Assembly (NCBI GenBank): GCA_018302765.1
Contig: JAGVZG010000001.1
Span: 68,482 to 132,481, forward strand
Reading direction: 5' to 3'
Origin: Candidatus Woesearchaeota archaeon
GTDB lineage: Archaea > Nanobdellota > Nanobdellia > SCGC-AAA011-G17 > GW2011-AR18
Length of the DNA stretch: 64,000 bases
In this document: piece by piece, positions 3,110-36,061 of the stretch
How positions within the stretch are numbered: the first letter of the stretch is position 1
Layout: each line of letters opens with the position of its first letter
Made by a program: the position numbers and the translations under genes
Notes under the pieces: generated by a model
Databases searched by the model: none
Seen by the model: only the letters and a program-made list of their open reading frames with translations
Told to the model about the DNA's origin: nothing

Positions 3110-4348
3110 TTAGAATTTTGCATATTTTGCTTTTTTACCCAGATCTTCTTCTATTTTTAATAACCTGTTGAATTTTGCTGTCCTTTCTCCTCTGCAAGGA
3201 GCACCTAATTTAATTTGACCGCAACCTAATGCAACTGCAAGATCTGCTATAAAAGTATCTTCTGTTTCTCCACTTCTATGACTAATCATTGTTTTCCATT
3301 TTGCTTTTGTTGCAAGCTTGAATGCTTCCAGAGCTTCTGTTAAAGTGCCTATTTGGTTGAGTTTTAATAGTAAACAATTGCATAAGTTTCCTTTTACTAC
3401 ATATTCTATTCTATTTTTATTTGTTGCCAATAAGTCATCTCCAACAATCTGTATTCTTATTTTTTTCTTCAGTTCTTTGTAAGCAGAGAAATCATCTTGG
3501 TCAAATGGGTCTTCCAATGATATTATAGGGTATTTCTTTATTAGGTCTTTATAATATTCTATGAGCTTATCTGAATTTAGCATCTTGTCTGGCTCTACTT
3601 TGTATTGGGTTCCTGTATAAAATTCTGATGCTGCTGCGTCTATGGCAAGTTTGACTTCATTTGTGTAATTATTTTCTTCTATTGCCTTTGATAGCATATC
3701 AAGGGCTTCACTAGGAGATTTTATTGGAGGAGCAAATCCTCCTTCATCTCCTACATGAGTTGCTAATTTTCCATATTTATCATCTAAATTTTGTTTTAGT
3801 GTGTAGTAAATTTCTGCTGCCATCTGTGTTGCTTGAGAGAATGATTTTGCTTTTATAGGAACTATCATAAATTCTTGTAACTGTAAGTCTCCTTCTGAGT
3901 GCCTTCCACCATTAATTATATTGCAAAAAGGTATTGGAATTATTGTTTTATTTCCTAAGTATTTGTATAAAGGTTTGTTTAATAAATTTGATGCAGCTAC
4001 AGCTACTGCAAGAGAAACAGCAAGCGTTGCATTCGCTCCCAAGTTTGACTTGTTAGGAGTGCCATCTAGATCTACAATTAAATTATCTATATCTTGCTGT
4101 TTTGTGATTTCTTTTCCTATTAATTTTGGAGCTATTAATTTATGTATATTATTGATTGCTTTGTACACTGATTTTCCATGATATTGTCTTTCTTTATCCC
4201 TAAGTTCCAGCGCCTCATATTTTCCAGTTGATGCTCCAGATGGAACTATTGCTGACCCTTTTGATTTTTCTGTAAACACTTCGCATTCTATAGTTGGGTT
4301 TCCTCTTGAATCTAGAACTTGCCTTGCTTTTATTTTTGTTATTTTCAT
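3110..4348 (-). CDS. eno: enolase (phosphopyruvate hydratase)
   Basis: 412 aa with the enolase signature SHRSGETED and conserved Mg-binding/catalytic regions. Confidence 0.9.
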   Translation of the reverse strand: MKITKIKARQVLDSRGNPTIECEVFTEKSKGSAIVPSGASTGKYEALELRDKERQYHGKSVYKAINNIHKLIAPKLIGKEITKQQDIDNLIVDLDGTPNKSNLGANATLAVSLAVAVAASNLLNKPLYKYLGNKTIIPIPFCNIINGGRHSEGDLQLQEFMIVPIKAKSFSQATQMAAEIYYTLKQNLDDKYGKLATHVGDEGGFAPPIKSPSEALDMLSKAIEENNYTNEVKLAIDAAASEFYTGTQYKVEPDKMLNSDKLIEYYKDLIKKYPIISLEDPFDQDDFSAYKELKKKIRIQIVGDDLLATNKNRIEYVVKGNLCNCLLLKLNQIGTLTEALEAFKLATKAKWKTMISHRSGETEDTFIADLAVALGCGQIKLGAPCRGERTAKFNRLLKIEEDLGKKAKYAKF

Positions 4349-11178: not shown

Positions 11179-14015
11179 TTTAGTATACTTCCTATTGCTA
11201 AAAATGATATTAAAATAAGTGCTATTATGTATTGTGAGATTGAAGTACTTCTAGATATATTTACAGTCAGGTAATCAACATTTGAGACTGTTGTTCCTGG
11301 TATTGTACTTAGAACAATTAAATTATGTTGGCCTGCTGATAATTTTATATCTTCTGAGTTACCAAGTGTTGATGTATAAAATTGATTGTCAGCGTATATT
11401 AATTTTAAATCTCCATTTGTAAATTGTATGTTAAAATCTCCTTTGAAGTATGCATTATCTGCTAAATTTAGTATAGATTGTGGCTTGCTTAGTTCTACAT
11501 CATTTGAATATATTTTACTATCGTATATAGATAGAGGCATTAAGGATATAATTTTTATTTTGTAGTCATTTAAATCAACTAGTATATTACTTGTTGGCCT
11601 AAAGGCTTCTCCACTTGTGCCATATTTTTGAGTTTCACTGGATTTAATTATTAGGTAATTTCCTGCAATATCTATATTTTTTAGTTCTCTAATGTCGATG
11701 TTCTGGTTGAATTTTCCTTTTTCATATACAATGTTACTTTTAGAAGAAGAAACATCAGTTACTATATCGTAACTATTTATAACAGATTTTGAGATTTTAT
11801 CAATGCAATATAGTTTTAAGTTAGAGCTTCCATCACTGCCAACTACAACGACGTCTTTTCTTTCATCCCCGCCACAATTATAAATCAAAACAGAATCTTT
11901 TCCAGGATTTAAGTAGTTAGGCAAGAAATCTAAAATTACATTGTTATTTTCATCTACTAAGACCGGAGCTCTTTCTGAATAATACAGAAGATGTTCACTG
12001 TCTAAAATTTCAGTAAACTGTAAATTATTAAAACTTTCTTCATTTACAACAGATAAGTCATTAACTCTGTATCTTAATATTTTGTTTCCACCAAATAATA
12101 TTATATTATTTCCAATTATATACTTGTGCTGCTGTATAAAATAAGTACCATTAATTATTTTGCTCTTTATCAGATTGTATTTTGCTCCATCAACAATACC
12201 AAACTTATCATTGCTTACAACTAAAACCTCTTTAACACCATCGTTGTTTATATCCTTAGTGCCATCTGTAAAAGAAAAATAAAAGTCTATATTTCCATCT
12301 TTGATCTCAACTTTATTCTTCTCAAATGTTGCAAGGCTTACTTCATAAGTATGTCCAGAATACAATAAGATAAATATTTTATTGCCTAAGTAAGCATAAC
12401 TGCTAATTTGCATTTTTTTCCCTATGTCAGAAGATTCCCAAAAAATCTTTTCATTCTGCAGTTTAAAAAGTTCATCTTGTGATACTTTATTTTTATTTTC
12501 TAATTTTGTTACATCTTCTCTAACGCTAATTATATTTTTCTCTATAGCTGGCTTATCACTTGCATTTGCAGCTGCTAACTTGGTCTGTAATTCATTAAAT
12601 TTGGTTTGCTTTTCAGATATTGACTTAAAATTACTATTTATAGAATTATTAACAGAACTAATTTTATTTATTATATCATCAATTATATCTGCCTGTTCTG
12701 CAGGAGAAACTTGGAAACTTATTTGCTTTAAAGCACTGGTTTTTGGGTATAAAATTCCTAAGGAATTTATATCAATGCCGCTTCCAAATAAAACTAAAAC
12801 CTCTTTAACACCATCGTTATTAATGTCATTTATTTCTTCTAGTCTAGAAATCTGAACGTTTTGTAGTTTGGTATCATCTACAGTACCAGAATATTGTTTA
12901 TATTTATAACTAAACGGCCAGTTTTTACTTATTATGAATTTAGAACTATCTAAATTTAAATTTACAAACTGTTTGTCAATTGAAAAAGTTCCTACTAATT
13001 TATTGTTTTTATATATGTTTACATTATTGTTACTATATGTCAAAATCAATGAATTATCAAACCAAGCTATTTTTGATGAAGAGTCTAAACTTATATTGCT
13101 AACATCAGCTATGTATTTTAATTCATTATCTTTTAGTACTTTAAGTTGTTTGTCCTGCACTATAAATGCTTGCTCATCATCTATGTTTGGCTGGTTTGTG
13201 GTGTCTAATTTAGTCTCTTCACTTCCAAATGTATTATAAATATAAAATTTATTTTCAAATTCATCAACTAAAATAATTTTATCACTAATAGCACTTACAA
13301 GTGTTTTTTGCAAACTAAAGCTGCTGTATTTATTTAATCTAGAATCATAGACAGTAAATTCAGTAGTAGTTCTGGCAGAATAAACTAATTTATACTGCAC
13401 AATAAAATTGCTTGTTAGAAAATACTTTTCCTGTCCGGTTTTTATGCTTTTTTCCTTTATTTTATTAAAATTTAAGTCATATACAACTATTTTTTGTGGT
13501 GTAATAATCACAAAATTATTTCCTAAAACACCAAAGTTTATTATATAATTTCCGGCATTTATTACTTTATTTATTTCACCGTTAATTGATTCATATATAT
13601 TATTAAAGTTTGAAAAAAATGTTCTTCCATTGTTTTTTAATATTTTTGTGGTTGGTGTAGGATAATTATTCTTGTAAGTTTTTTTTGTTATTGGAATTGT
13701 TTTAATTACTTTACCTTGTTTGCCATCTATAATTTTAGTGCTGGGAACAATAAAACTTTGCGAGCCAATTAAAATATCTTGATAACCATTACCATTTACA
13801 TCTTCTATTATTTCAAGGTCATTTATTTTGTCTTCATCAAAAAAGCTCCACATAAATTCTCCTTCTTTAGAAAATGCTAAAATATTACTTCCAGAACCAA
13901 ATAAAATGTAATTTGATGAAGATTTACTTATACTAAATTCAGCATAGCCTGCTGCACCAACAACCGGAAAAATTACTAAAGCCATCAAAATTAAGTATAT
14001 TGTTTGTTTTAGCAT
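11157..14015 (-). CDS. large surface protein with beta-propeller-like (FG-GAP/VCBS-like DxNGDG) repeats, central coiled coil and C-terminal TM anchor
   Basis: 952 aa with an N-terminal signal peptide and repeated motifs VNGNGYQDILIGS, NNDGVKEVLV (x2) and CGGDERKDVVVVGSDG. A heptad-like Lys/Glu stretch is present. The C-terminus is hydrophobic followed by KWKRMKR. It overlaps the ABC ATPase start. Confidence 0.6.
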   Translation of the reverse strand: MLKQTIYLILMALVIFPVVGAAGYAEFSISKSSSNYILFGSGSNILAFSKEGEFMWSFFDEDKINDLEIIEDVNGNGYQDILIGSQSFIVPSTKIIDGKQGKVIKTIPITKKTYKNNYPTPTTKILKNNGRTFFSNFNNIYESINGEINKVINAGNYIINFGVLGNNFVIITPQKIVVYDLNFNKIKEKSIKTGQEKYFLTSNFIVQYKLVYSARTTTEFTVYDSRLNKYSSFSLQKTLVSAISDKIILVDEFENKFYIYNTFGSEETKLDTTNQPNIDDEQAFIVQDKQLKVLKDNELKYIADVSNISLDSSSKIAWFDNSLILTYSNNNVNIYKNNKLVGTFSIDKQFVNLNLDSSKFIISKNWPFSYKYKQYSGTVDDTKLQNVQISRLEEINDINNDGVKEVLVLFGSGIDINSLGILYPKTSALKQISFQVSPAEQADIIDDIINKISSVNNSINSNFKSISEKQTKFNELQTKLAAANASDKPAIEKNIISVREDVTKLENKNKVSQDELFKLQNEKIFWESSDIGKKMQISSYAYLGNKIFILLYSGHTYEVSLATFEKNKVEIKDGNIDFYFSFTDGTKDINNDGVKEVLVVSNDKFGIVDGAKYNLIKSKIINGTYFIQQHKYIIGNNIILFGGNKILRYRVNDLSVVNEESFNNLQFTEILDSEHLLYYSERAPVLVDENNNVILDFLPNYLNPGKDSVLIYNCGGDERKDVVVVGSDGSSNLKLYCIDKISKSVINSYDIVTDVSSSKSNIVYEKGKFNQNIDIRELKNIDIAGNYLIIKSSETQKYGTSGEAFRPTSNILVDLNDYKIKIISLMPLSIYDSKIYSNDVELSKPQSILNLADNAYFKGDFNIQFTNGDLKLIYADNQFYTSTLGNSEDIKLSAGQHNLIVLSTIPGTTVSNVDYLTVNISRSTSISQYIIALILISFLAIGSILKWKRMKR

Positions 14016-18176: not shown

Positions 18177-18611
18177 TTAAATGTCAACAAGCACTTTTGC
18201 TTTCCATTTGTCTTCTTCTTTTATTATTTCAAATTCATGCATTGTAATTGCCTTTGCATCGTCATGGAGATCCTGAGTTTCTCTGTTGATAAAATCACCT
18301 TCACATCTTGCAAATATTTCATATACTTTATTTTTGTGTGATATAACAACATCGAACTTGTTAAACAGCAAACCTTCTGTGTCTTTAACAAATATAAGTT
18401 CTGAAAGAAAATCATAAAGAAGATTTTCTATGGAATTTGTTTTTAGTGATATTTCATAATGCTCTTTAGTCTCCAATGTTTTTATGTCTACCATGATTTC
18501 TTCTAGAGCCAGAGCTGAATTTTCAAATAGGCTTTCTAATGTTTTTCCATAGGCTTCAAAAATTATATCTGCTGTGTGTGGTAGAAATTTATACTTCATC
18601 TTCTTTAACAT
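18177..18611 (-). CDS. archease (RtcB activator)
   Basis: 144 aa. The N-terminal FLPHTADIIFEAYG motif (HTAD) and a C-terminal ...KVLVDI match the archease family. Confidence 0.8.
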   Translation of the reverse strand: MLKKMKYKFLPHTADIIFEAYGKTLESLFENSALALEEIMVDIKTLETKEHYEISLKTNSIENLLYDFLSELIFVKDTEGLLFNKFDVVISHKNKVYEIFARCEGDFINRETQDLHDDAKAITMHEFEIIKEEDKWKAKVLVDI

Positions 18612-19053
18612 TCCTTCTTTCTACAACAATATTTATTTGCGTTGTCACACCTTCTTTATCTTCCCTTATTAAAATATTTCTGTCAGTTATTTGTTTTACA
18701 ATGTCTTTTATTGTGTAATCTGACTTCATTTTATCTCCAATCAAAACAGCATTTAGCATATATTCATTTGAAATTTGTTCTATTGTGATCTGCTTTATTG
18801 CTGATAATACAAATAACTCGTTATTTGCTAGTTCAAATAATCTTTTTAGAAATTGGAAAAGCAGATTTTTAAGATCCCTTGCTCTTATTATCAGTGTTTT
18901 TGTAATAGCTAGATCTATTTCTTCTGTGTTTATTACAATTTCAAATAATGACTTTGCTATTTTTGAGAACGATGCTTCTAAACTTGATGCTTTTTCTGAT
19001 ATTGTTATTTCTTCGACTTTGTGCTTTGACATAAGCTTTTTAATGCAATGCAC
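18589..19053 (-). CDS. archease-like paralog lacking the HTAD motif
   Basis: 154 aa. ASSLEASFSKIAKSLFEIV and ARDLKNLLFQFLKRLFELANNELFV align with archease core helices, but the metal-binding H-T-A-D is replaced by T-I-S-E. It overlaps the archease start by 23 nt. Confidence 0.45.
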   Translation of the reverse strand: MHCIKKLMSKHKVEEITISEKASSLEASFSKIAKSLFEIVINTEEIDLAITKTLIIRARDLKNLLFQFLKRLFELANNELFVLSAIKQITIEQISNEYMLNAVLIGDKMKSDYTIKDIVKQITDRNILIREDKEGVTTQINIVVERRNVKEDEV

Positions 19054-19144: not shown

Positions 19145-21649
19145 ATGGGAAAGGTTTTGAACTACGTAGGTAGAGGCATAAGAAATTTTGTTAGAAGGCA
19201 CAAGAAAGGGATTTCGCTAGCTGGAGCTTTAGTATTTGGCACTTCTGCTGCTTTAACTTGTGGCATTTATAAGTATATAACTACTCCTCCAAAGGATTTT
19301 GGAAGAGTAGGGCAATACTGGCATACTTACAAAGAACGTGAAAAATTAAAAAGTATAGAAAATAATGGTGCTTTAGAAAATAAGTTGAATATAAATAGAA
19401 AAGATAATGGTTCTTCAGGCGGGGCTTATCCTGATCCTAATATAATAGGCATTTGGCCGTTAACTCCGGATAACGGAATTAAGGTAGTTACTTCCAGTGG
19501 CAGAGAAATTGTTACTAGATACGCCACTTGGAACTATGCTTCTTTGGATGAAGTACCTAAAACTGTTATAAATTCTGTTTTAAGTGTAGAAGATGCAGAC
19601 TATCTTGAGCATAAAGGAGTAAACTGGAATTTAAGGAAGATTAAGGGTTTATTTTCTCCTATTCTTGGTGGAAGACGTGTTGGTGGAAGTGGCATAACAG
19701 AACAAGTATCTAAAATGATGTTTACTGATTTTGGTAAGATAAAGCCTAGGAGATCAGCAATGCAGAAACTTCGTGAGTTGCGTTATGCTTATTATTTAGA
19801 TAGTGTGCTTGGCAAGGAACAAGTATTAGAATTTTATTTGAATACAACGCCATTAGGAGACAGTTGTTATGGCGTAAAGTGCGCTGCTATGAATTACTTT
19901 GGTAAGGAACTGAGTAATTTAACTTTTCCTGAGAGTTTGTTTTTAGCAGCAATTATTAAAAATCCAGGAGCAAATCCAAAGAATAGTGGTTTTGAATTTC
20001 AAAAACGTAGATATGACATGCTCTGTGAGTCTTTGCACGATCTTGAAAGGATTACTGAAGATCAATATAAGGAGTGCAAATCTGCAGATGTGATTAAAAT
20101 GAAGCCTGGCTTAAAAAGAAGAAGATCTCCAATAAGTGATCCTAGTGTTTTTAGTGCTTTGGCTTATGAATTAGAAAATTATGATTTTGATTTAGTTGAC
20201 AATGTTGTTCATCAGCCAAATCCAGGTTTTGGGTTTACAGTTTATACTACAATAAATGATGAGATGCATGACGCTTTAGGCCAAGCATTTGTGGATGGAC
20301 TTAAACCAAATCAAGAACAGGTTCAACTTGGCGCTGGCGCTGTGCTGAATAGCGAGGCTCAAATAGTTGCTATTTTAGGCAGGACAGACTACAGTACGCT
20401 AAGCGGAGCTTGGAGTTTTAGGAATCTTGCTGTAGCTGGGAGACGTGCTGCTGCTTCTTCAATAAAGCCTTTTGTTTATGGTTCTTGCTATGACCAAGAG
20501 AATTCAAATATTACATGCAAACCAGGCAATGTTATTTCTGATTCTAAAAAAGGATTGAGAAATCCTCCTCATAATTTTGATGGAAAGTATGAAAGAAGAA
20601 TGTCTTTAGCAGAAGCTTTAACTTCATCGAATAATGTAATAGCTTATAAAGTGTGTCGTAGAATTGGACTTAGAAATGTACTTCCAGTTATAGAAGCTGT
20701 TGGATTTGATGTTGCTGAATATGAAACAGTATTTAGGGACTGCAGAAATACTGCTTTAGGCTCAGGGCGTGTAACTCCTTTAGAACTTGCTGCTGCTTAT
20801 CGTGTTTTTGTAAAAGACGATGATGGTAATTTTTCTGCAGAATATAGAAAGCCAACAATTATTGATAGGGTTGATTTATGGTCTTTTAATTACAAAGTAA
20901 ATCTATCTGCAACAAAAGTTTTTCGTAGTGCTAACACAGTTGAATCTGTTAGAATTAGCTTAGACAGGCTTGGAAATAAAATTGTTGGCAGTAAATATGA
21001 AGCAGATATAGGTTTTAAGACTGGCACTCCAAACCCCACTACACATTGGTATTTAGGTGGAGTTCTTGACCTTGATAGTGTTTCTTATTCTATAGGTTTT
21101 CTGGCTGTGGCTAAACCTAAAGTTGTACCTTCAAAAAAAAATCCTAAGGTTTTAGTAAAAGTTTATCCTAATAAGTTGTATGCTAGTGGCGTTCTTGGTC
21201 CTGTGGTAAAAAGTTTTGTTGACGGAGTTGCTCCTAGAAAAGAAATGAAGCCTATTGATCTATATGTTCCTGCTGTTGCTAGCTTGGACAGCGTATGCAG
21301 TAATTATAATTTAGCAAGCGTTGAGCTAACTTTGCCTAGTGCTGATAATCACGATCTTGAGACACTGGGAGATATTTTAAGTGCTTGCTCTTCTTATTTT
21401 TCTGCTAATAATGAAAATGAAAAGTATGGCTTATTTTCTTACGCTGCAGGCCGTGTCTGGGAGACTTTGTACAGTAATGAAGCAACGTCTTCTCCAGGCA
21501 GCAAAACTGCTTTGCTTTACTATAGCAGTGCAATTAATTCTTATAAAACAGCTGTTCAGGAAGACAGTTTTAGTAGTTTAGCTGAAGAAAGAATTAGAGA
21601 TTTAAAGATTAAAAGAGAACAGGAAGCTAATAGAATTCATGCAGATTAA
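19145..21649 (+). CDS. class A penicillin-binding protein (bifunctional GT51 peptidoglycan glycosyltransferase / D,D-transpeptidase), N-terminal TM anchor
   Basis: GT51 motifs EDADYLEHKG, GGSGITEQ, QKLRE and VLEFYLNTTPLG...YGVKCAAMNYFGK...LTFPESLFLAAIIKNP. Transpeptidase motifs SSIKP (SxxK), SSN (SxN) and KTGT appear with canonical spacing. A TM segment lies near the N-terminus. Confidence 0.8.
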   Translation: MGKVLNYVGRGIRNFVRRHKKGISLAGALVFGTSAALTCGIYKYITTPPKDFGRVGQYWHTYKEREKLKSIENNGALENKLNINRKDNGSSGGAYPDPNIIGIWPLTPDNGIKVVTSSGREIVTRYATWNYASLDEVPKTVINSVLSVEDADYLEHKGVNWNLRKIKGLFSPILGGRRVGGSGITEQVSKMMFTDFGKIKPRRSAMQKLRELRYAYYLDSVLGKEQVLEFYLNTTPLGDSCYGVKCAAMNYFGKELSNLTFPESLFLAAIIKNPGANPKNSGFEFQKRRYDMLCESLHDLERITEDQYKECKSADVIKMKPGLKRRRSPISDPSVFSALAYELENYDFDLVDNVVHQPNPGFGFTVYTTINDEMHDALGQAFVDGLKPNQEQVQLGAGAVLNSEAQIVAILGRTDYSTLSGAWSFRNLAVAGRRAAASSIKPFVYGSCYDQENSNITCKPGNVISDSKKGLRNPPHNFDGKYERRMSLAEALTSSNNVIAYKVCRRIGLRNVLPVIEAVGFDVAEYETVFRDCRNTALGSGRVTPLELAAAYRVFVKDDDGNFSAEYRKPTIIDRVDLWSFNYKVNLSATKVFRSANTVESVRISLDRLGNKIVGSKYEADIGFKTGTPNPTTHWYLGGVLDLDSVSYSIGFLAVAKPKVVPSKKNPKVLVKVYPNKLYASGVLGPVVKSFVDGVAPRKEMKPIDLYVPAVASLDSVCSNYNLASVELTLPSADNHDLETLGDILSACSSYFSANNENEKYGLFSYAAGRVWETLYSNEATSSPGSKTALLYYSSAINSYKTAVQEDSFSSLAEERIRDLKIKREQEANRIHAD

Positions 21650-26702: not shown

Positions 26703-26910
26703 ATTTTTGAATATTTAGACAATTTTATAAACTAATTATGTTCATTCAGATCACGCTGATGTTTTCCGATGTTCTAATTTTACACTGTTTTTGTGTTTTA
26801 AACTTTATATCTTTGTTTCTTGCTTAGCTGTGCAATGGAACACTTGACTTATAGATGTCATAGTTTTCTAAAACCTTATCTACATAATAAAGACGTGACT
26901 TATATTTAAG

Positions 26911-26936
26911 CTCATCCCTGTTTTTCTAATATTTGT
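26911..26936. repeat. 26-bp direct repeat CTCATCCCTGTTTTTCTAATATTTGT (copy 1 of 2, flanking the Fic gene)
   Basis: Exact copy also at 27899-27924. Confidence 0.85.
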
Positions 26937-27003
26937 GCTATATTTACCCCTACATTTTGTATAAAATGGTAATATTTATATAGTTGTAGAGGTAGTTATT
27001 TGT

Positions 27004-27894
27004 ATGGTTTTGATAAGAAAAAAATCAATAGATAGCAAGGAGTATTATTATTTGGAACATTCATTTAGAGAAGCAGGTTCTGTCAAAAAAAAAGAACTTT
27101 ACTTAGGAACTGAGATTCCCAAAAATATTGAAGAAATCAAGATAAAATTTACTGAAGAAATATATAAAGAAAGATGGAGTAAAACATTAGAAGAGATAAA
27201 AAAAGAGTATAATAAAGAAAATAGATCAATACCAGAATCGTTAACTGAAAAAGAAATAGAATCTTTTATGATTAAATTTACTTATAATACTCAAAGGATA
27301 GAAGGTTCAAGGTTAACATTAAGAGAAACTGCAAATTTATTAGAAAAAGGAATAACGCCCAAAGAAAAACCTGTTAGAGATGTTAGAGAAGCAGAAGCAC
27401 ATAAAAAAGTATTCTATGAAGTGTTAAAATTCAAAAAAGACTTGTCATTAGATTTAATTCTTCATTGGCATAGAATGTTGTTTTTAGAAACAAAAAAAGA
27501 TATGGCTGGAATACTAAGAAAACACCAGGTTGCAATATCTGGGAGTAAGTTTATACCTTCCTCTCCTGTAGAAGTTTATTTATTATTAAGGGAATTCTTT
27601 AAATGGTATGAAAAAAATAAAAGTAAGATAAATCCTGTAGAATTAGCAGCATGCGTTCATTTAAAATTTGTTACAATACACCCATTTGGAGATGGGAATG
27701 GGAGAATATCAAGACTGATGATGAATTTTGTTCTCAAAAAAAATAAATATCCAATGTTAAATATAAAATATGAAGGAAGAAATAGTTATTATAATGCGCT
27801 TGAAAGATCGCAAGTAAAGAAAAATGAAGGAATATTTATACAATGGTTTATAAAAACTTATATAAAAGAAAATAAAAGATATTTGAAGAAATAA
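27004..27894 (+). CDS. fic: Fic-family protein (AMPylase-type) with putative inhibitory helix
   Basis: Fic motif HPFGDGNGRISR (HPFx[DE]GNGR). An upstream TQRIEG matches the [ST]xxxE[GN] auto-inhibition motif. Confidence 0.8.
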   Translation: MVLIRKKSIDSKEYYYLEHSFREAGSVKKKELYLGTEIPKNIEEIKIKFTEEIYKERWSKTLEEIKKEYNKENRSIPESLTEKEIESFMIKFTYNTQRIEGSRLTLRETANLLEKGITPKEKPVRDVREAEAHKKVFYEVLKFKKDLSLDLILHWHRMLFLETKKDMAGILRKHQVAISGSKFIPSSPVEVYLLLREFFKWYEKNKSKINPVELAACVHLKFVTIHPFGDGNGRISRLMMNFVLKKNKYPMLNIKYEGRNSYYNALERSQVKKNEGIFIQWFIKTYIKENKRYLKK

Positions 27895-27898
27895 GTTC

Positions 27899-27924
27899 CT
27901 CATCCCTGTTTTTCTAATATTTGT
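27899..27924. repeat. 26-bp direct repeat (copy 2 of 2)
   Basis: Identical to 26911-26936. Confidence 0.85.
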
Positions 27925-28078
27925 ACAAATATAGATCCTTTAATTCGTTTTGGAAAAATTTTTAGCTATCTCTCTTGAAGTTAAACTAAACTATGAATTT
28001 CCGCAAGGGTATGCTCATACTATCTAAATAAAACTTTGAAATTTTAAAAATTTAAGATGAATAGTCGCCAGAAATCTA

Positions 28079-28665
28079 GCGAGCTTCTAAATTGAGAAAT
28101 TATTTAATTAAGCTCGCGACCACTCTTTAGAGTGGAGTGAATGGTGTGTAGAAACATTATTCTAGAAATAGTTTAGGAATAATGCTGGTAAAGTGATGCA
28201 TCCCGAAGGAGGCAACGATGAGCATCTACTAGCAAAATACTCATGCACATTCAATCGCATGGAGCACATGGCATTTTGAATGGTGCACTAAGTATTGGTA
28301 TAATATATTCAGGCAAGACTACATTAAAAATCTTTGCCTGATTGCAATAAGCGAAGCTGCAAAGAAGAATAAGATAGAAATTATGGAAATTGAAGTGGAT
28401 GTAGATCACATTCATCTTATTGCTTCAATTCCACTAACAATGGCGCCTAGTAAAGCACTAAACTTAATCAAAGGATTTAGTGCTTACTTATTGTTTAAGA
28501 TTGTACCAAATCTCAGGCTTAGATATAGAAAAGGACATTTATGGAGCAAGGGAAAATTTGCAGCAAGTGTTGGGCATATAACTTTAGAAAATGCGAAAAA
28601 ATATCTCGAGGAGCATCACGCCAAATCAATTAAAGGAATCTCCACCCTTTAGGGTGTGAGAGGAT
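28079..28665 (+). mobile_element. IS200-like (tnpA-only IS200/IS605 family) element with subterminal hairpins
   Basis: Left hairpins GCGAGCTT/AAGCTCGC (28079-28117) and CCACTC-TTTA-GAGTGG (28120-28135). A similar CACCC-TTTA-GGGTG hairpin sits at the tnpA stop (~28645-28660). An HUH/Y1 transposase ORF lies in between. Confidence 0.55.
28233..28652 (+). pseudogene. tnpA: IS200/IS605 family transposase TnpA (HUH Y1), N-terminally degenerate or frameshifted
   Basis: The C-terminal two-thirds is conserved (EIEVDVDHIHLI HUH motif; GHLWSKGKFAASVG; catalytic Tyr region KKYLEEH). The in-frame upstream part has no ATG, and an ATG is found only in another frame. Confidence 0.55.
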
Positions 28666-29193
28666 GTCAATTTTTAGAAATGTGGAAACAAGCTGAGAGA
28701 TGATACAGGGTGTTTTATGGGATGTACTTTATATTCTAATTCTACTTATTATAACTATGAAAACAAAAATTAAATTGGAGGTAAATAAAATGCACTTATG
28801 TCATGAAACTGAGGATTTTGTGATTGTTTCAAAAGATCTCAAAAGTTAATTTTATATAGGTATGGAAGACTTTCTAAAATTACGCCGAGGTCGCCTAACC
28901 TGGTATGGCACAGGATTGCTATATAATGGTTTGCAAATATCCTGCGTCCTCACGGACTTGTGGGTTCAAAAACCATTTAGCACTATCAATGATGTGGCTT
29001 AGTGCCTTTAGATGATTGATAGTCCCACCCTATAAAGGTTCATTTAGAATCTTTAGGTGAACGGCGTTTATAGTAACTGTGCTTAAGACCTCGGATAAAC
29101 TTTTTTAATAGATAAAAATGGTAAAATAAAAGATATTATTGATAAAATTAATTGTGAAACACATGGTAAAGATGTTTTGGAGATGTTTTAAAA

Positions 29194-29454
29194 ATGGGAA
29201 AAAAATATAGGGTTGAATTGGATAGAGAAGGTTGTATAGGTGCAGCAGCCTGCGTTGCTGTAGATTCTGATAATTGGATAATTGTTGAAGATGGAAAAGT
29301 TGATTTGAAAGATAGTATTAAAGATCAAAAAACTAGTTTTTTTGTAAGAGAAATTGATGAGTCTGAATTACAGAAATGGAAGGAAGCTGCTGAAGCTTGT
29401 CCTGTTACTGTAATACATATTGTTGATTTAGAAACTGGTAAGAGGATAATATGA
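29194..29454 (+). CDS. small ferredoxin-like protein (single-cluster 4Fe-4S/3Fe-4S type)
   Basis: CIGAAACVAV...EACP Cys pattern; 86 aa. Confidence 0.45.
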   Translation: MGKKYRVELDREGCIGAAACVAVDSDNWIIVEDGKVDLKDSIKDQKTSFFVREIDESELQKWKEAAEACPVTVIHIVDLETGKRII

Positions 29455-29651
29455 AAACTGAATGTCCCAAATGCAAAAGCAAGCACATTGATGCTGTTGA
29501 ATTAATGGGAAGTAAATTTCTAATATGTTTAAGTTGTGGTTATGATGAAAGTGAAAGTGTGTTAGATGTTTATCCAGAATCCAGGGGTGGAAAAGGCGGG
29601 AAAGGTACCCCTTATAAACGTGGTGGACCAATGAGAAGTGTAAAAAGATAA
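29451..29651 (+). CDS. small zinc-ribbon protein with Gly/Lys-rich basic tail
   Basis: CPKC...CLSCG (two CxxC pairs); the start overlaps the ferredoxin-like stop. Confidence 0.45.
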   Translation: MKTECPKCKSKHIDAVELMGSKFLICLSCGYDESESVLDVYPESRGGKGGKGTPYKRGGPMRSVKR

Positions 29652-29655
29652 TTTT

Positions 29656-30018
29656 TTATATTTTTACTCTAAAATGGAATTTTCTTCCTATATAATATCC
29701 TTTAAGATATGACTCTGAAGCCTCACTTGGGGAAATATTTATTAATCCGTCGTTTAATCCCCTAGAGAACTTAATGGCAGCAACGTCTTGTGTCCTTGCT
29801 TTGGCTAAATCTTGACCAGCTTGATATAGTTTTGATCCGTCACCACAACTTATATCTTGATTTGTATTCATTATTCTTTTATCATAAAATCCTTTAATAA
29901 TATATTCTATATTAATAAAAGTTAATTTATTTAAGATTGTGTCTAAAGAATTACTTGGTAATTGGTATTTTGTAGCAATGCGTTTTAAAGTTACTACTTC
30001 TTCATCTGCGCCAAACAT
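29656..30018 (-). CDS. hypothetical protein
   Basis: 120-aa ORF downstream of trpS on the same strand. Confidence 0.4.
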   Translation of the reverse strand: MFGADEEVVTLKRIATKYQLPSNSLDTILNKLTFINIEYIIKGFYDKRIMNTNQDISCGDGSKLYQAGQDLAKARTQDVAAIKFSRGLNDGLINISPSEASESYLKGYYIGRKFHFRVKI

Positions 30019-30055
30019 AAATCATCAATTTTTTCTTTACTTTTTAAATATTTAG

Positions 30056-31186
30056 TTATTTCATCATATTATTTTTATAAATAAATTTGTCAATTTGCTT
30101 TTTTGCCAATTCTCTTTTTCTTTGATGTTCTTTTAGAAAAGAATTTATTTTTTCAATTAATATTTCTTTCAGTTCTCCTGTTAATAATTTTCCTGATTTG
30201 TAATCGTAGTAAATTTTTTCTAGTTTTTTATCATCAGGTTCAAACAACATTCTTAACCATTGGTAGCTTATATCTATTTCTGGATTGCCGCCTTTTTTTC
30301 TGTGTTCCTCTACTGTTGCTTGACCGCCTGAAAATGCGTACTTTCTGATTTTTTTAGCTACTACTTCAGGCGGATCTATTGTGTGTAGTGCAGATGATTC
30401 TTCTGATGATGACATTTTTCCACTTGATCCTGTTAGTGATGGCAAGAACATGCACTGAATACTTGCTGGTTTGTAATAACCTAATTTTGGTAGAATATCT
30501 CTTGTAATTCTGAAATGTGGATCTTGATCGATGGCATGTGGTATTAAACAAGGGATATTTTTATTTTTTATAACTGAAGGTAGGAATGCTGGAACAGTTT
30601 GCATTGAAGTATAAAATATGGCACCTATATTTGTTTGTTCATTTAATCCAAAAGAGGATTTAACCATAGAAAATGTTATTTTTTTAGCGATTTTGCATGC
30701 TTCTTTATACATTAAGTCAGCATGTTTTGTATCAACTAAGAATTTTGTTTTTTTCTGATCAAAACCAATAGCAATAACGTCTAGCATATTTTCATGTAAA
30801 TATTTTTCTGTATCTTCAGATGTTAATTCTTGTTTGAATAAAAATTTTTCTTCATCTGGAAATTGGAACCACAATTCCGCATCAAATTGGTCTTGCAACC
30901 ACTTTGTGAACAACCAAGGCATTAAATGTCCTAAATGTACATTACCAGATGGAGCCCTGCCACTATATAAGTAAAATTTATTTCCTTTTTCGTATTCGTT
31001 AAGCAGCCAATTTAAATCTCTATGAGCAAAGAATACTTTTCTTCTTAACATGAAATGTAGATCTTTTGTGTGTTTTTTTATTCTTGTTAGGATTTCATCA
31101 TTAATTTTTTCAACGCCAAATTCCTTGATTAATCTGTCGTAATCAACTTCCCCTTTTACATCCCATGGAGTTACTGTGAAATTCAT
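30056..31186 (-). CDS. trpS: tryptophanyl-tRNA synthetase (archaeal/eukaryotic type)
   Basis: Class I HIGH-type motif PSGNVHLGHL and KMSSS (KMSKS variant typical of TrpRS); 376 aa. Confidence 0.75.
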   Translation of the reverse strand: MNFTVTPWDVKGEVDYDRLIKEFGVEKINDEILTRIKKHTKDLHFMLRRKVFFAHRDLNWLLNEYEKGNKFYLYSGRAPSGNVHLGHLMPWLFTKWLQDQFDAELWFQFPDEEKFLFKQELTSEDTEKYLHENMLDVIAIGFDQKKTKFLVDTKHADLMYKEACKIAKKITFSMVKSSFGLNEQTNIGAIFYTSMQTVPAFLPSVIKNKNIPCLIPHAIDQDPHFRITRDILPKLGYYKPASIQCMFLPSLTGSSGKMSSSEESSALHTIDPPEVVAKKIRKYAFSGGQATVEEHRKKGGNPEIDISYQWLRMLFEPDDKKLEKIYYDYKSGKLLTGELKEILIEKINSFLKEHQRKRELAKKQIDKFIYKNNMMK

Positions 31187-31282
31187 ACAAGAATTGGTTT
31201 TAGCTTATTTTTAATTTTATTGTTTTACTTTTTAATGGTGTTAATATGCTTTTGAAGCTAGTTTTATAAGTTTTTTGTATTT

Positions 31283-33829: not shown

Positions 33830-36061
33830 ATGTCTTTAAGATCACTACTATATGCAGCGCTTTTTTTATTTATTGGCAGTGCTGAAACTAACGTTGATGC
33901 TGCTAGAAAACCTAGGTCAGAGAGAACAGCGTTTTCTAAAATAAAAGAAAAGGGTAATGTACATGTTTTTAAGTACAGAGTATCTAGTGGTGAAAAAGAC
34001 AGTGATATTGCTTTGAAATTTGGGATTTGGGACAGAGGCCAAGGCAGTTTGTATGAAACAGTTACTTCTGCAAGCGTTACTGGCGACCCTTCTTGTAAAC
34101 CTCAACTTCTTAAAAAAGAAAACATTGCTTATGTTTGCGCTAATAGAAAACTACGTGTAGTGCCTAATGATTTCAAAGGGCCTTCTATTGAATTTATAGA
34201 TTTGTTTGATACTCCTTATTGGGGTTCTTTGTTGAAGGTTACAAAGAGTTTTGGTCCTGATGGATTTCCAGTTCACACTGTTGATTTAAATATAACTGCA
34301 AGAGAAAAAATAAATGTTAATTCTAGGAGAAGTGCTTATGCTTATAGAGGTTCACATGATTTGGAAAGTATAACTATTTTTGCTTTTGATAGAGATGCTG
34401 AGAGAGATCTTACTTTATGTCCAGAAAAAGTCTATGAGTTTAAGTATGACGAGCTAGTTACTTTGCCTAATTGCATTACTGATGGTTCTTATGGTATTTT
34501 GGCAGCTTTAGAACATTTTGCTAAGTTTGAGTATGGCGTTTTAGATAAATATACAGAAACTGTTCCGCCAGGATTAGCAGGTTTTAAGGCTGGAAGATTA
34601 GTTAAACCATCTGCAGAACTTGCACCAGCTCCGATAATATTTATAACTCCTCCACCTTCTCCAACACCTTTAGTTCCAGTTCCAGTTTCAACAATACCAG
34701 CAGCTCCTAGTGGTTCAAGTGCTTCATCTTCTGCTACTACAACAGTTCATTCTCCACCTATTAGTTTCAAAGCTAGAAGACCAGGACCTGGTTCAGCTGT
34801 ACCTTCAGTTGGTTCAGGAATTTCAACAATACCAGCAGCTCCTAGTGGTTCAAGTGCTTCATCTTCTGCTACTACAACAGTTCCTTCTCCACCTATTAGT
34901 TTCAAAGCTAGAAGACCAGGACCTGGTTCAGCTGTACCTTCAGTTCCAGCTTCGGTTTCTGTTTTTAGCGGTTGGACTGATACCGCTTTAGGTTCAAGCA
35001 CTGAATCTTGTAGTGCCTGCGCATCAACAAACTCAGTACAATTTGTAGGAGGAGTTAGAGTTCGTGGCTTGTTAAGTAACGTTGAATTTAATAGCAACAC
35101 AGGTTTAGAATCTTCTTATGGTTTTATTGGTGGAGATTTACGTTTAGTTTTGGGTGGGGGTGTTGGGAATAATTATTTAGCAGTTTCTGCAGCTGCTGGA
35201 TTAAGAAAAGTTGGCGTAGATGGATTATTAAGTAAAAGGCTTTTGGACTTTGGTGACAATAGTAATACAACTCATGTAGAAGTTGGACCGTCTGGAAGAT
35301 TACATTTAGCTAAAGGAAATAAATTGGAAGTTGATGCTGTACTTAATCCTGCTTTTTTATATAGTAGAGAGCGTGTAAATAATTTTGGCGGAAATAGTTT
35401 CTTAGAGGAAGGTAAAGGGCTTAGGATAAATGGCAGTGTAGCTTTACCTCGTCTCTTATTTAATGGAGAAAAATTTGCTTGGGGTTTATACGGTGATTTT
35501 GATTTAGAGGCATTGAGACTAAAGCAAACTAATCTGAATAGTGGACAGGAAACTTTGTTTGGCTGGAGAACTAGAGGATCTTATGGCGGAGGCAGTTCTT
35601 TTAGTTTTGATGCTTTAGGAACAGACGTTAATATTGGTGTTGGATTTAGGACGCACCATAATTATAATTTAGCTTTAAGAAGTAATTTATCTCCTAATGA
35701 TTTAAAGTGGTTACAATACAGACAACAGAGAGGTTTTATACTTGATTTAAGTGATCTTACTGTAGGTGATTCTAGAGGGTATACTTTAGACCCAGCTTTA
35801 ACTATTGAAAATGATAGGTTTTATTTAAGACTTGAAGGACAAGTATCTATTTATGGAAATGTAAGGAGAGGGGGATTTTGCTTAAATACTGGTGGCAAAA
35901 CCAGAGGTGGTTTATACATTGGTAGTGGGTTTTGTTACAGTGATATTACTCAAGAATCTGAAGCAGGCAGTGCCAGAAGCAGGGGAGGATCAGTTAATAT
36001 TACTTTAGGAAGTCCCAGTATTAAATTAAATCCAAGAATTGATCAGGCAGACATAAGATAA
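33830..36061 (+). CDS. secreted protein P4: signal peptide, divergent FKY/CKPQ/AYVC domain, Pro/Ser-rich region with tandem ISFKARRP-containing repeat, Gly/aromatic-rich beta-strand-like C-terminal domain
   Basis: Signal peptide LLYAALFLFIGSA. Motifs VFKY...SCKPQ...IAYVCA are present. SPPISFKARRPGPGSAVPSV appears twice. The C-terminal ~350 aa shows alternating hydrophobic/polar residues rich in G, N, R, Y and F. Confidence 0.55.
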   Translation: MSLRSLLYAALFLFIGSAETNVDAARKPRSERTAFSKIKEKGNVHVFKYRVSSGEKDSDIALKFGIWDRGQGSLYETVTSASVTGDPSCKPQLLKKENIAYVCANRKLRVVPNDFKGPSIEFIDLFDTPYWGSLLKVTKSFGPDGFPVHTVDLNITAREKINVNSRRSAYAYRGSHDLESITIFAFDRDAERDLTLCPEKVYEFKYDELVTLPNCITDGSYGILAALEHFAKFEYGVLDKYTETVPPGLAGFKAGRLVKPSAELAPAPIIFITPPPSPTPLVPVPVSTIPAAPSGSSASSSATTTVHSPPISFKARRPGPGSAVPSVGSGISTIPAAPSGSSASSSATTTVPSPPISFKARRPGPGSAVPSVPASVSVFSGWTDTALGSSTESCSACASTNSVQFVGGVRVRGLLSNVEFNSNTGLESSYGFIGGDLRLVLGGGVGNNYLAVSAAAGLRKVGVDGLLSKRLLDFGDNSNTTHVEVGPSGRLHLAKGNKLEVDAVLNPAFLYSRERVNNFGGNSFLEEGKGLRINGSVALPRLLFNGEKFAWGLYGDFDLEALRLKQTNLNSGQETLFGWRTRGSYGGGSSFSFDALGTDVNIGVGFRTHHNYNLALRSNLSPNDLKWLQYRQQRGFILDLSDLTVGDSRGYTLDPALTIENDRFYLRLEGQVSIYGNVRRGGFCLNTGGKTRGGLYIGSGFCYSDITQESEAGSARSRGGSVNITLGSPSIKLNPRIDQADIR
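34688..34945 (+). repeat. near-perfect tandem duplication: two 123-bp units separated by 12 bp (period 135 bp) inside the P4 coding sequence
   Basis: Units 34688-34810 and 34823-34945 differ at about one base (cattct vs ccttct). Each encodes STIPAAPSGSSASSSATTTV[H/P]SPPISFKARRPGPGSAVPSV. Confidence 0.85.

Follow-up and report, generated by a model that had tools for sequence, protein, structure and literature searches.

Elements integrating at tRNA genes, such as the archaeal SSV/pNOB8-type elements and the tycheposons, are flanked by direct repeats, copies of the 3' end of a tRNA gene or of some other gene, and leave the host gene intact, and their successive insertions build islands beside a tRNA. 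Integron cassettes end with attC, those of the Vibrio superintegron being separated by Vibrio cholerae repeats (VCRs). Toxin-antitoxin (TA) genes reside between short sites in pdif modules, the sites being 28-bp XerC/D targets in alternating orientation, and MITEs (miniature inverted-repeat transposable elements) are non-coding and feature terminal inverted repeats. Tycheposons come with flanking partial tRNAs and degenerate remnants (bioRxiv 10.1101/2020.12.28.424599), integron cassettes also form clusters devoid of an integrase, presumably mobilised in trans (PMC9668308), and 'hitcher' elements, such as MITEs, att-flanked elements resembling cis-mobilizable elements (CIME-like), and pdif modules, carry no enzyme of their own and depend on a helper (PMC11389934). 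Elements flanked by attachment (att) sites, integrase-less hitchers and class II Fic enzymes are already known. The locus described here, positions 26911-27924 of a 64-kb window (the whole stretch of DNA analyzed) from an organism listed at NCBI as Candidatus Woesearchaeota archaeon, is a fic gene, its product named Fic family protein, set between two perfect 26-bp direct repeats. The favoured reading, held at a probability of roughly 0.5, is that the locus represents a one-gene, non-autonomous integrative cassette, and that the 26-bp repeats are att-like duplications at its junctions.

The two repeat copies are located as follows:
26911-26936, plus strand, direct repeat copy 1 (upstream junction, attL-like), exact 26-mer
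27899-27924, plus strand, direct repeat copy 2 (downstream junction, attR-like), exact 26-mer

The 26-mer, CTCATCCCTGTTTTTCTAATATTTGT, whose two positions were given in an earlier inspection of the letters by a model (hereafter the sequence-only reading), occurs exactly twice in the window, on the plus strand both times and with 26 of 26 bases identical; no match is expected by chance (100 dinucleotide-preserving shuffles). Scanning the window at up to 7 mismatches adds one match, at 13622, which is at chance level. The bases flanking the 26-mer differ between the copies (g/c on the left, g/a on the right), and outer repeats above noise were not found in the window. The core motif TTTTCTAATATTTGTG (26922-26937) is contained in the 3' portion of copy 1. 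A gap of 67 bp separates copy 1 from the ATG, and copy 2 starts 4 bp past the TAA stop of fic, the distance first read. Between the copies lie the fic open reading frame (ORF), its 67-bp upstream region and, counting ORFs of at least 40 amino acids (aa), a single 48-aa antisense ORF which is probably spurious, so that fic stands as the sole gene between the repeats. Some 30 contigs, assembled with several programs from numerous Rifle-aquifer samples, contain the Fic protein sequence. Ten contigs of differing sample and assembler were inspected for the pattern, and all ten have both repeat copies; another 16 loci from this population align at 99.7-100%. Hence the arrangement is not an assembly artefact. 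A repeat arisen by chance, for which the AT-richness of the genome alone could be adduced, is hardly credible either, given the null expectation in shuffles, the identity across samples and assemblers, and the recurrence of the same geometry in relatives.

One further feature touches the downstream junction:
27917-27932, no strand, perfect 16-bp palindrome made of ATATTTGT and ACAAATAT, its centre being the right edge of repeat copy 2

The 64 kb contain only three such palindromes, the number also expected from shuffles. The position is striking and was noticed post hoc; it could mark a symmetric target site or be a coincidence. As a separate observation, a stretch of 23 nucleotides (nt) at 26709-26731 (GAATATTTAGACAATTTTATAAA), just past the stop of the TlpA-like gene upstream of the locus, resembles the fic codons at 27830-27854 (GIFIQWFIK), with a score of 34 vs. 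a shuffle maximum of 29 (0/300), and may be the relic of an older fic copy.

Homologous loci were fetched from other genomes and contigs (1.4 Mb in total) and labelled with L-numbers. Six relatives (L193, L027, L029, L194, L030, and L028) are 80-87% identical to the window at the nt level. Their homology to the window is limited to 26885/26945-27894: it starts at repeat 1, or a few bases outside of it, and ends at the fic stop, tRNA-Ser being all that aligns beyond these limits. The upstream 26-mer region is homologous in all six, at a fixed, gap-free distance to the fic promoter. The core TTTTSTRATRTYTGYR resides upstream of fic in L193, L027, L194, and L029, diverged versions of it in L030 and L028. 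A related motif is found 0-10 bp past the fic stop in L193, L027, L029, and L030, and L028 has a repeat of its own there. The L029 pair, CATTCTTTTGTGATGTTTGCGCAAA and CATTCTTTTGTGATGTCTGTGCAAA (1734-1758 and 2720-2744), is spaced by 986 bp vs. 988 in the window. The downstream copy is absent in L194 and the upstream copy in L195, the fic genes of both loci being intact. Between the window and L027, identity amounts to 87% for Fic, 77% for EF-1alpha, and 42% for Dph5, which argues for horizontal transfer of fic; the module, whose non-coding leader shows 84% nt identity, is hence younger than the genomes carrying it.

At up to one mismatch, TTTTSTRATRTYTGYR is almost confined to these cassette ends in the fetched loci; a looser scan (up to 3 mismatches) returned noise and was discarded. 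The core bounds TA cassettes in relatives as well, and hence is not exclusive to fic. A third motif copy precedes a DUF3368/UPF0175 TA pair in L029, and L027 has copies around a ParE TA pair and on both sides of a DUF4143 ATPase. The proviso attached to the first observation, that the 26-mer might belong to a widespread intergenic repeat family with no specific link to fic, thus applies as far as TA cassettes share the core; the motif marks cassette boundaries, and is no general intergenic repeat.

Copies shared by neighbouring cassettes bring in an array-like alternative, judged improbable, in which one motif copy ends each cassette after its stop, and the upstream 26-mer is the tail of a decayed preceding cassette or a docking site. 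In relatives, the motif indeed comes after the stop both of TA pairs (at +21) and of fic (at +0 to +10), a single copy is common to the TA pair and fic in L029, and copies surround several adjacent cassettes in L027; moreover, TAAG precedes the upstream copies, mirroring the TAA-G of fic before copy 2, and the fic-like 23 nt near the TlpA-like gene would fit a decayed predecessor. Yet the fixed, gap-free distance separating the upstream copy from the promoter in all clade members indicates that this copy was inherited along with fic, and the window copies are identical at 26 of 26 bases whereas the cassette tails of relatives differ. Nor is a tail motif shared by the repeats found outside this clade, which are host 3' ends (see below), and neither an attC-like hairpin (fold z-scores of -1.4 to +1.1) nor IntI accompanies the motif.

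The cassette reading gains from the wider family. Full-length orthologous loci (57) were fetched from GTDB species representatives, and flanking repeats were scored by comparing the 300 bp preceding fic with the 200 bp following it and taking the highest-scoring ungapped match, with a threshold of at least 12:
fic genes in GTDB genomes: score of at least 12 in 15 of 56
neighbouring control genes at the same loci: score of at least 12 in 9 of 197 (Fisher p = 8e-6)
fic genes in independent metagenome contigs: score of at least 12 in 22 of 68, of at least 15 in 12 of 68

Flanking direct repeats are accordingly found at 27-32% of fic genes vs. 4.6% of neighbouring genes, and some of the matches at control genes look mobile themselves (a second Fic, a DUF4143 ATPase, an rve transposase). 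The repeats are unrelated in sequence between loci, and often derive from the 3' ends of host tRNAs or genes. The L032 repeat corresponds to the last 15 nt of tRNA-Thr (CTCCGGCGGCTCCAC), the L047 repeat to the last 15 nt of tRNA-Ala, and the L054 repeat to the final 30 nt of the upstream ORF, while an 81-bp perfect repeat in L076 extends from the end of one gene into the start of its neighbour. Such target duplications are not restricted to fic: a DUF4143/AAA_14 ATPase gene in L074 (5227-6528, minus strand) resides between 45-bp repeats corresponding to the 3' half of a tRNA, and the ParE TA pair of L027 between perfect 68-bp repeats derived from the end of the ribosomal S10 gene (2097-2164 and 2826-2893). 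The DUF4143 ATPase of L027 (4588-5883, minus strand) is related to that of L074 and matches the PADLOC model PDC-S01 (2e-111). In L048 and L078 the promoter inverted repeat described below begins 2-3 nt past a tRNA 3' end, and a tRNA 3' end abuts one side of the module in about 11 of 133 loci, these making up most of the tRNAs found at the flanks. Of the 15 repeat-flanked loci, 11 have a left repeat whose end falls about 60-80 bp short of the ATG and closely precedes the promoter inverted repeat; in L034, L036, L043, and L050 it lies 125-216 bp upstream. Right repeats begin +1 to +176 after the stop, and repeats with a score of at least 12 are 12-81 bp long. No integrase family recurs among the 112 neighbouring ORFs (230-480 aa) of the 57 loci; the families which do recur are extra Fic proteins, DUF4143 ATPases, and housekeeping genes. 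As an aside, metagenome contigs with this Fic family often measure no more than about 1.0-1.3 kb, close to the cassette length, and some start exactly at the promoter inverted repeat (L206, L230), a pattern expected from assembly breaks at a repeated or mobile unit. Terminal overlaps denoting circular 1-kb contigs with fic were not found.

The repeats may alternatively act in cis, as a T-rich archaeal terminator or insulator on both sides of fic, or as two regulator sites kept identical by gene conversion; in the terminator version, they would protect a toxic gene against read-through and terminate the transcript of that gene. This explanation, likewise unlikely, accounts for the T-rich coding strand of the repeats (runs of TTTTT and TTTT), for their location directly past stops and in the orientation of the gene on both sides, and for the maintenance of the motif at both ends in clade members of differing context. 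Selection for a terminator, however, would not hold 26 of 26 bases while orthologous motifs vary at many positions; repeats in other clades are tRNA or ORF 3' ends, with no T-run in the tRNA-Thr repeat of L032, for instance; and fic is intact in L194 and L195, each missing one copy.

A second non-coding feature travels with the gene:
26945-26994, plus strand, fic promoter with inverted repeat, recognised by covariation across orthologues
26945-26954, plus strand, left arm of the inverted repeat, TACCCCTACA
26975-26982, plus strand, putative TATA box, TTTATATA, placed by archaeal promoter geometry
26985-26994, plus strand, right arm of the inverted repeat, TGTAGAGGTA

The inverted repeat surrounds the TATA box in every clade and in nearly all orthologues, at a constant distance to the ATG, and accompanies the fic gene across host contexts. 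The arms covary between clades (TTACCCCTACA/TGTAGGGGTAA, TTACCATTACA/TGTAATGGTAA, TTACGGTGACAT/ATGTCACCGTAA, GTATCCAGTGT/ACACTGGATAC and others). In 113 distinct sequences, all 12 pairs have changed on both sides, compensatory cells number 126 vs. 33.7 in shuffles (0/500), and 87.5% of the cells are paired vs. 31-52% when the partner is slid. The fic mRNA is predicted to be probably leaderless. Being placed upstream of the TATA box, the left arm is not transcribed, and the inverted repeat is therefore read as a palindromic operator for a dimeric repressor, an operator being likely, as the simplest reading. A candidate for this repressor is Fic itself, by way of its N-terminal domain.

The product of the gene has the following features:
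27004-27894 (stop 27892-27894), plus strand, fic gene, 296 aa, N-terminal beta sheet followed by a FICD-like class II Fic core
27679-27714, plus strand, catalytic motif HxFx(D/E)GNGRxxR, H226-PFGDGNGRISR237 (HPFGDGNGRISR), read from sequence
27289-27306, plus strand, [S/T]xxxE[G/N] auto-inhibitory motif, T96-Q-R-I-E100-G101, read from sequence

The protein belongs to the Fic/DOC family PF02661 (Pfam match 4e-22, 79.3 bits vs. a cut-off of 24), and H226, P227, D230, G231, N232, G233, R234, and R237 of the catalytic motif are invariant in 41 homologues, as are I99, E100, and G101 of the inhibitory motif. Both the identification as Fic by HPFGDGNGR and the class II-like label, given on account of TQRIEG, are borne out: TQRIEG aligns with the inhibitory TVAIEG(N) of FICD, N-terminal to the HPFGDGNGR core. 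The best solved relatives in a phmmer search of PDB are FICD/HYPE and Bacteroides BT_2513 (matches include 3cuc). In an AlphaFold model built on the 41 homologues (mean predicted local distance difference test, pLDDT, of 91.7) the inhibitory motif falls in a predicted helix, 78-99/100; the top Foldseek matches of the model are FICD, with a template modelling (TM) score of 0.74 over about 258 columns, and residues 1-35 are modelled as an additional three-stranded beta sheet with a conserved YYYLEHSFR. From its motifs, the protein is a class II, FICD-like Fic with the inhibition motif in the same polypeptide, and auto-inhibition is predicted. A second plausible ORF, as in class I FicT/FicA modules, was not found between or beside the repeats, and since the inhibitory motif is internal in the class II arrangement, the lack of an antitoxin gene inside the repeats, remarked on at the outset, is accounted for.

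With FICD/HYPE and other class II Fic AMP-transferases the protein shares the HxFxDGNGRxxR motif, the N-terminal inhibitory TxxxEG helix, and the fold; with the single-gene phage-defence candidates PDC-S04 (1.3e-35) and SoFic (2.4e-30) it is grouped by PADLOC sequence matches, to models having no curated cut-off, and a defence role is putative. It departs from these proteins by its additional three-stranded beta domain at the N-terminus (residues 1-35), which archaeal phyla have in common, and features no TPR, transmembrane, or C-terminal winged helix-turn-helix (wHTH) domain. The Fic family counts 4759 matches at E <= 1e-5. Identity is 62-73% to sequences from Woese-, Nano-, Pace-, Micr-, Had-, Bathy- and Nitrososphaerota, an unusual degree of conservation across archaeal phyla. 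Only one close relative (47%) was found on viral contigs, which suggests that the family is not mainly virus-borne. Near-full-length orthologues (40-67% identity) were also observed on contigs binned as Parcubacteria, Planctomycetota, and Neomarinimicrobiota (L035, L047, L082), by either mis-binning or cross-domain transfer.

On the favoured reading, the cassette would have been acquired horizontally by this Woesearchaeote and would have integrated upstream of a tRNA-Ser(GCU) gene, recombination between a site of the incoming cassette and a matching chromosomal site leaving the 26-bp repeats. Recombination between the repeats would free a 988-bp circle with one copy. The payload is a predicted class II Fic AMP-transferase under its own promoter, the inverted repeat being the likely operator, through which expression would be tight and probably auto-regulated. 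The enzyme would be held off by the internal inhibitory glutamate, E100, and once released would probably act as a defence or addiction toxin. Because the cassette encodes no recombinase, insertion would depend on an enzyme supplied in trans, either a resident integrase or a Xer-type recombinase, or on host recombination at a short shared sequence; this step is the weakest link of the cassette reading. Apart from the window, at least four clade members have a tRNA of the serine type downstream of fic, and this suggests a shared docking region upstream of tRNA-Ser.

Several results weigh against this view. Neither an empty site, nor a circular junction, nor a cassette-free strain was found, the roughly 25 contigs covering the locus all carrying the cassette; the empty sites sought in relatives, as the sequence-only reading had proposed, did not turn up. 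When the flanking TlpA-like and ferredoxin proteins were looked up by exact match, only loci of identical layout or contig breaks were retrieved, and no empty site. The closest TlpA homologues (62-66%) sit in unrelated contexts, the relatives of the host being too distant for comparison. No recombinase lies between the repeats, where fic is alone, and none recurs near orthologues. Variable repeat lengths and right ends fit one precise site-specific enzyme poorly, and no dyad symmetry of the Xer/dif type, such as characterises the core sites of tyrosine recombinases, was seen on inspecting the repeat sequences. In L027, the motif copies of the TA cassette lie inside the outer 68-bp target duplication, and an outer 25-bp repeat is found in L195; the same motif is homologous at both ends across the clade loci, and may travel with the cassette instead of being target-derived. 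Also, several clade members are near a tRNA-Ser, and some of these contexts may be inherited and so not independent. The self-contained mobile cassette suggested at first is strongly backed by block-wise homology and by Fic being more conserved than EF-1alpha between hosts; its mobility is inferred, no integrase, empty site, or excision product having been found.

Two other searches can be recorded here. A scan of Joint Genome Institute (JGI) metagenome contigs with an exact 24-mer gave no match, and is uninformative on other copies. L026, considered as an alternative junction 15 bp past repeat 2, was set aside, such a junction being less likely: it is a SPAdes node of 2x coverage, 100% identical to window positions 27939-31219, which switches to unrelated DNA of higher GC content at both ends (1-409 and 3691-4330), and is a probable chimera.

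Measured against the systems outlined at the beginning, the locus presents the direct repeats of an integrative element (attL/attR-like, 26/26 bp, with family-wide enrichment), and encodes no tyrosine or serine recombinase. Duplication of the 3' part of a tRNA or other gene is seen in L032, L047, L054, and L076 for fic, and in L074 for the ATPase. Elements integrating at tRNA genes differ in that the Fic unit is about 1 kb long and has a single cargo gene, with no integrase, excisionase, or replication gene; in addition, the window repeat is intergenic and is not a tRNA sequence, the cassette being on the 5' side of the tRNA-Ser, which lies 960 bp downstream, beyond an insertion sequence (IS). 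Integrons, clusters of attC sites lacking an integrase (CALINs), and VCR cassettes, archaeal integrons included (PMC9668308), are similar for their gene-sized units, often TA or defence genes, and for a recurring short site. In contrast to them, the Fic cassette carries its own promoter and has no attC-type imperfect hairpin, R''/R' core, or IntI; its site is about 16-26 bp long and non-palindromic, and outside the clade the repeats are host gene ends. Membership among integron cassettes or CALINs was thus discarded: DNA folds of both strands around both repeats have z-scores of -1.36 to +1.13 vs. shuffles, no Rfam match and no GTTRRRY/RYYYAAC pair was found in the sequence, no integrase family is among the recurrent families of the 112 neighbours in relatives, and only two motif copies reside in the 64 kb. 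Like the hitchers, the cassette is bounded by recombination or repeat sequences, and differs from MITEs and pdif modules in having neither terminal inverted repeats nor pdif-type sites.

Two features adjoin the cassette downstream:
28051-28669, plus strand, IS200/IS605 element with tnpA at 28218-28652, a neighbour outside the cassette
28884-29066, plus strand, tRNA-Ser(GCU) gene with three putative introns, the spliced form being called tRNA-Ser(gct) by ARAGORN

The IS200-like element noticed earlier is real, homology to an intact copy starting at 28051, and what is left of tnpA is a remnant inactivated by an in-frame TAG at codon 5 (28230-28232). Its C-terminal 89 aa match Y1_Tnp (PF01797, 5.6e-18) and the NCBIfam model transpos_IS200 (NF033573, 2.4e-17); an intact 144-aa tnpA homologue, about 95% identical at the nt level, is found at the same place in L023. 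Contigs break at 28030, 28082, and 28669, and as assemblies break at the element, IS200 is taken to be multi-copy in the population. That this element, whose copy lies 127 bp downstream, moves the cassette, or that the cassette is a conventional transposon with a target-site duplication, is very unlikely, in spite of the multi-copy status of the family and the intact copy in L023. IS200/IS605 Y1 transposases act on subterminal hairpins and are not known to make a target duplication. The tnpA of the window is dead, relatives with the same repeat geometry have no adjoining IS, and the cassette ends lack terminal inverted repeats, while the duplication, 26 bp here and 12-81 bp family-wide, greatly exceeds those known from transposases in both length and variability. 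With no transposase in the unit either, its assignment to transposons or IS elements was rejected.

The putative tRNA-Ser introns are 17 nt (canonical 37/38 site), 53 nt (T-loop), and 30 nt (3' acceptor strand) long. The unspliced gene was missed by both ARAGORN and Rfam, zero tRNAs being called in the window. It aligns with the intron-less tRNA-Ser beside fic in L027, and also with L029 and L030; intron-less or two-intron homologues adjoin fic in L027 and L029, tRNA-Ser being the conserved downstream neighbour of the window fic clade. The accessory insertion of about 2.5 kb proposed between the TlpA-like and ferredoxin genes (26703-29193) is hence not one insertion, and resolves into the cassette, a dead IS200, and the three-intron tRNA-Ser(GCU).

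Two more observations concern genes farther away in the window. The ORF at 33830-36061, encoding a large unannotated protein, contains a near-identical 125-bp segment at 34686-34810 and 34821-34945 (repeat offset of 135 bp, or 45 aa), and L003 and L024 have a 698-aa protein in place of 743 aa, a copy-number variation. An 834-aa ORF (19145-21649, plus strand) with Pfam transglycosylase and transpeptidase domains, similar to penicillin-binding protein 1 (PBP1), adjoins two tandem archease genes (18177-19053, minus strand); a peptidoglycan-type synthase of the PBP1 kind is unexpected in an archaeon.

Literature searches on repeat-flanked archaeal Fic or TA cassettes yielded no description of this arrangement. 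No account was found in them of a Fic family which, across archaeal phyla, behaves as a gene-sized, recombinase-less cassette, with duplications of host 3' ends and a co-varying, putative operator. It is conceivable, though doubtful at present, that an undescribed class of gene-sized, recombinase-less cassettes exists in archaea, especially in DPANN and Nitrososphaerota, which would carry Fic, DUF4143/PDC-S01 ATPases, or TA pairs, insert at the 3' end of a tRNA or protein gene, leaving long, variable target duplications of about 13-81 bp, and follow no known integrase, integron, or transposase route. The co-varying promoter element and the N-terminal beta domain could be part of the insertion machinery, or of an autoregulatory addiction circuit. 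An inverted-repeat-flanked TATA box together with flanking direct repeats would provide a simple genomic signature for finding similar cassettes, and the highly conserved archaeal FICD-like family, equipped with a likely operator, is tractable for studies of Fic regulation. If the cassette reading is true, a 1-kb unit with a tightly controlled promoter of its own, landing at gene 3' ends and leaving att-like duplications, would explain how single defence or toxin genes are traded among small-genome DPANN and other archaeal phyla without integrases, and excision between the repeats and the helper recombinase would offer a testable handle on horizontal gene flow in uncultured lineages.

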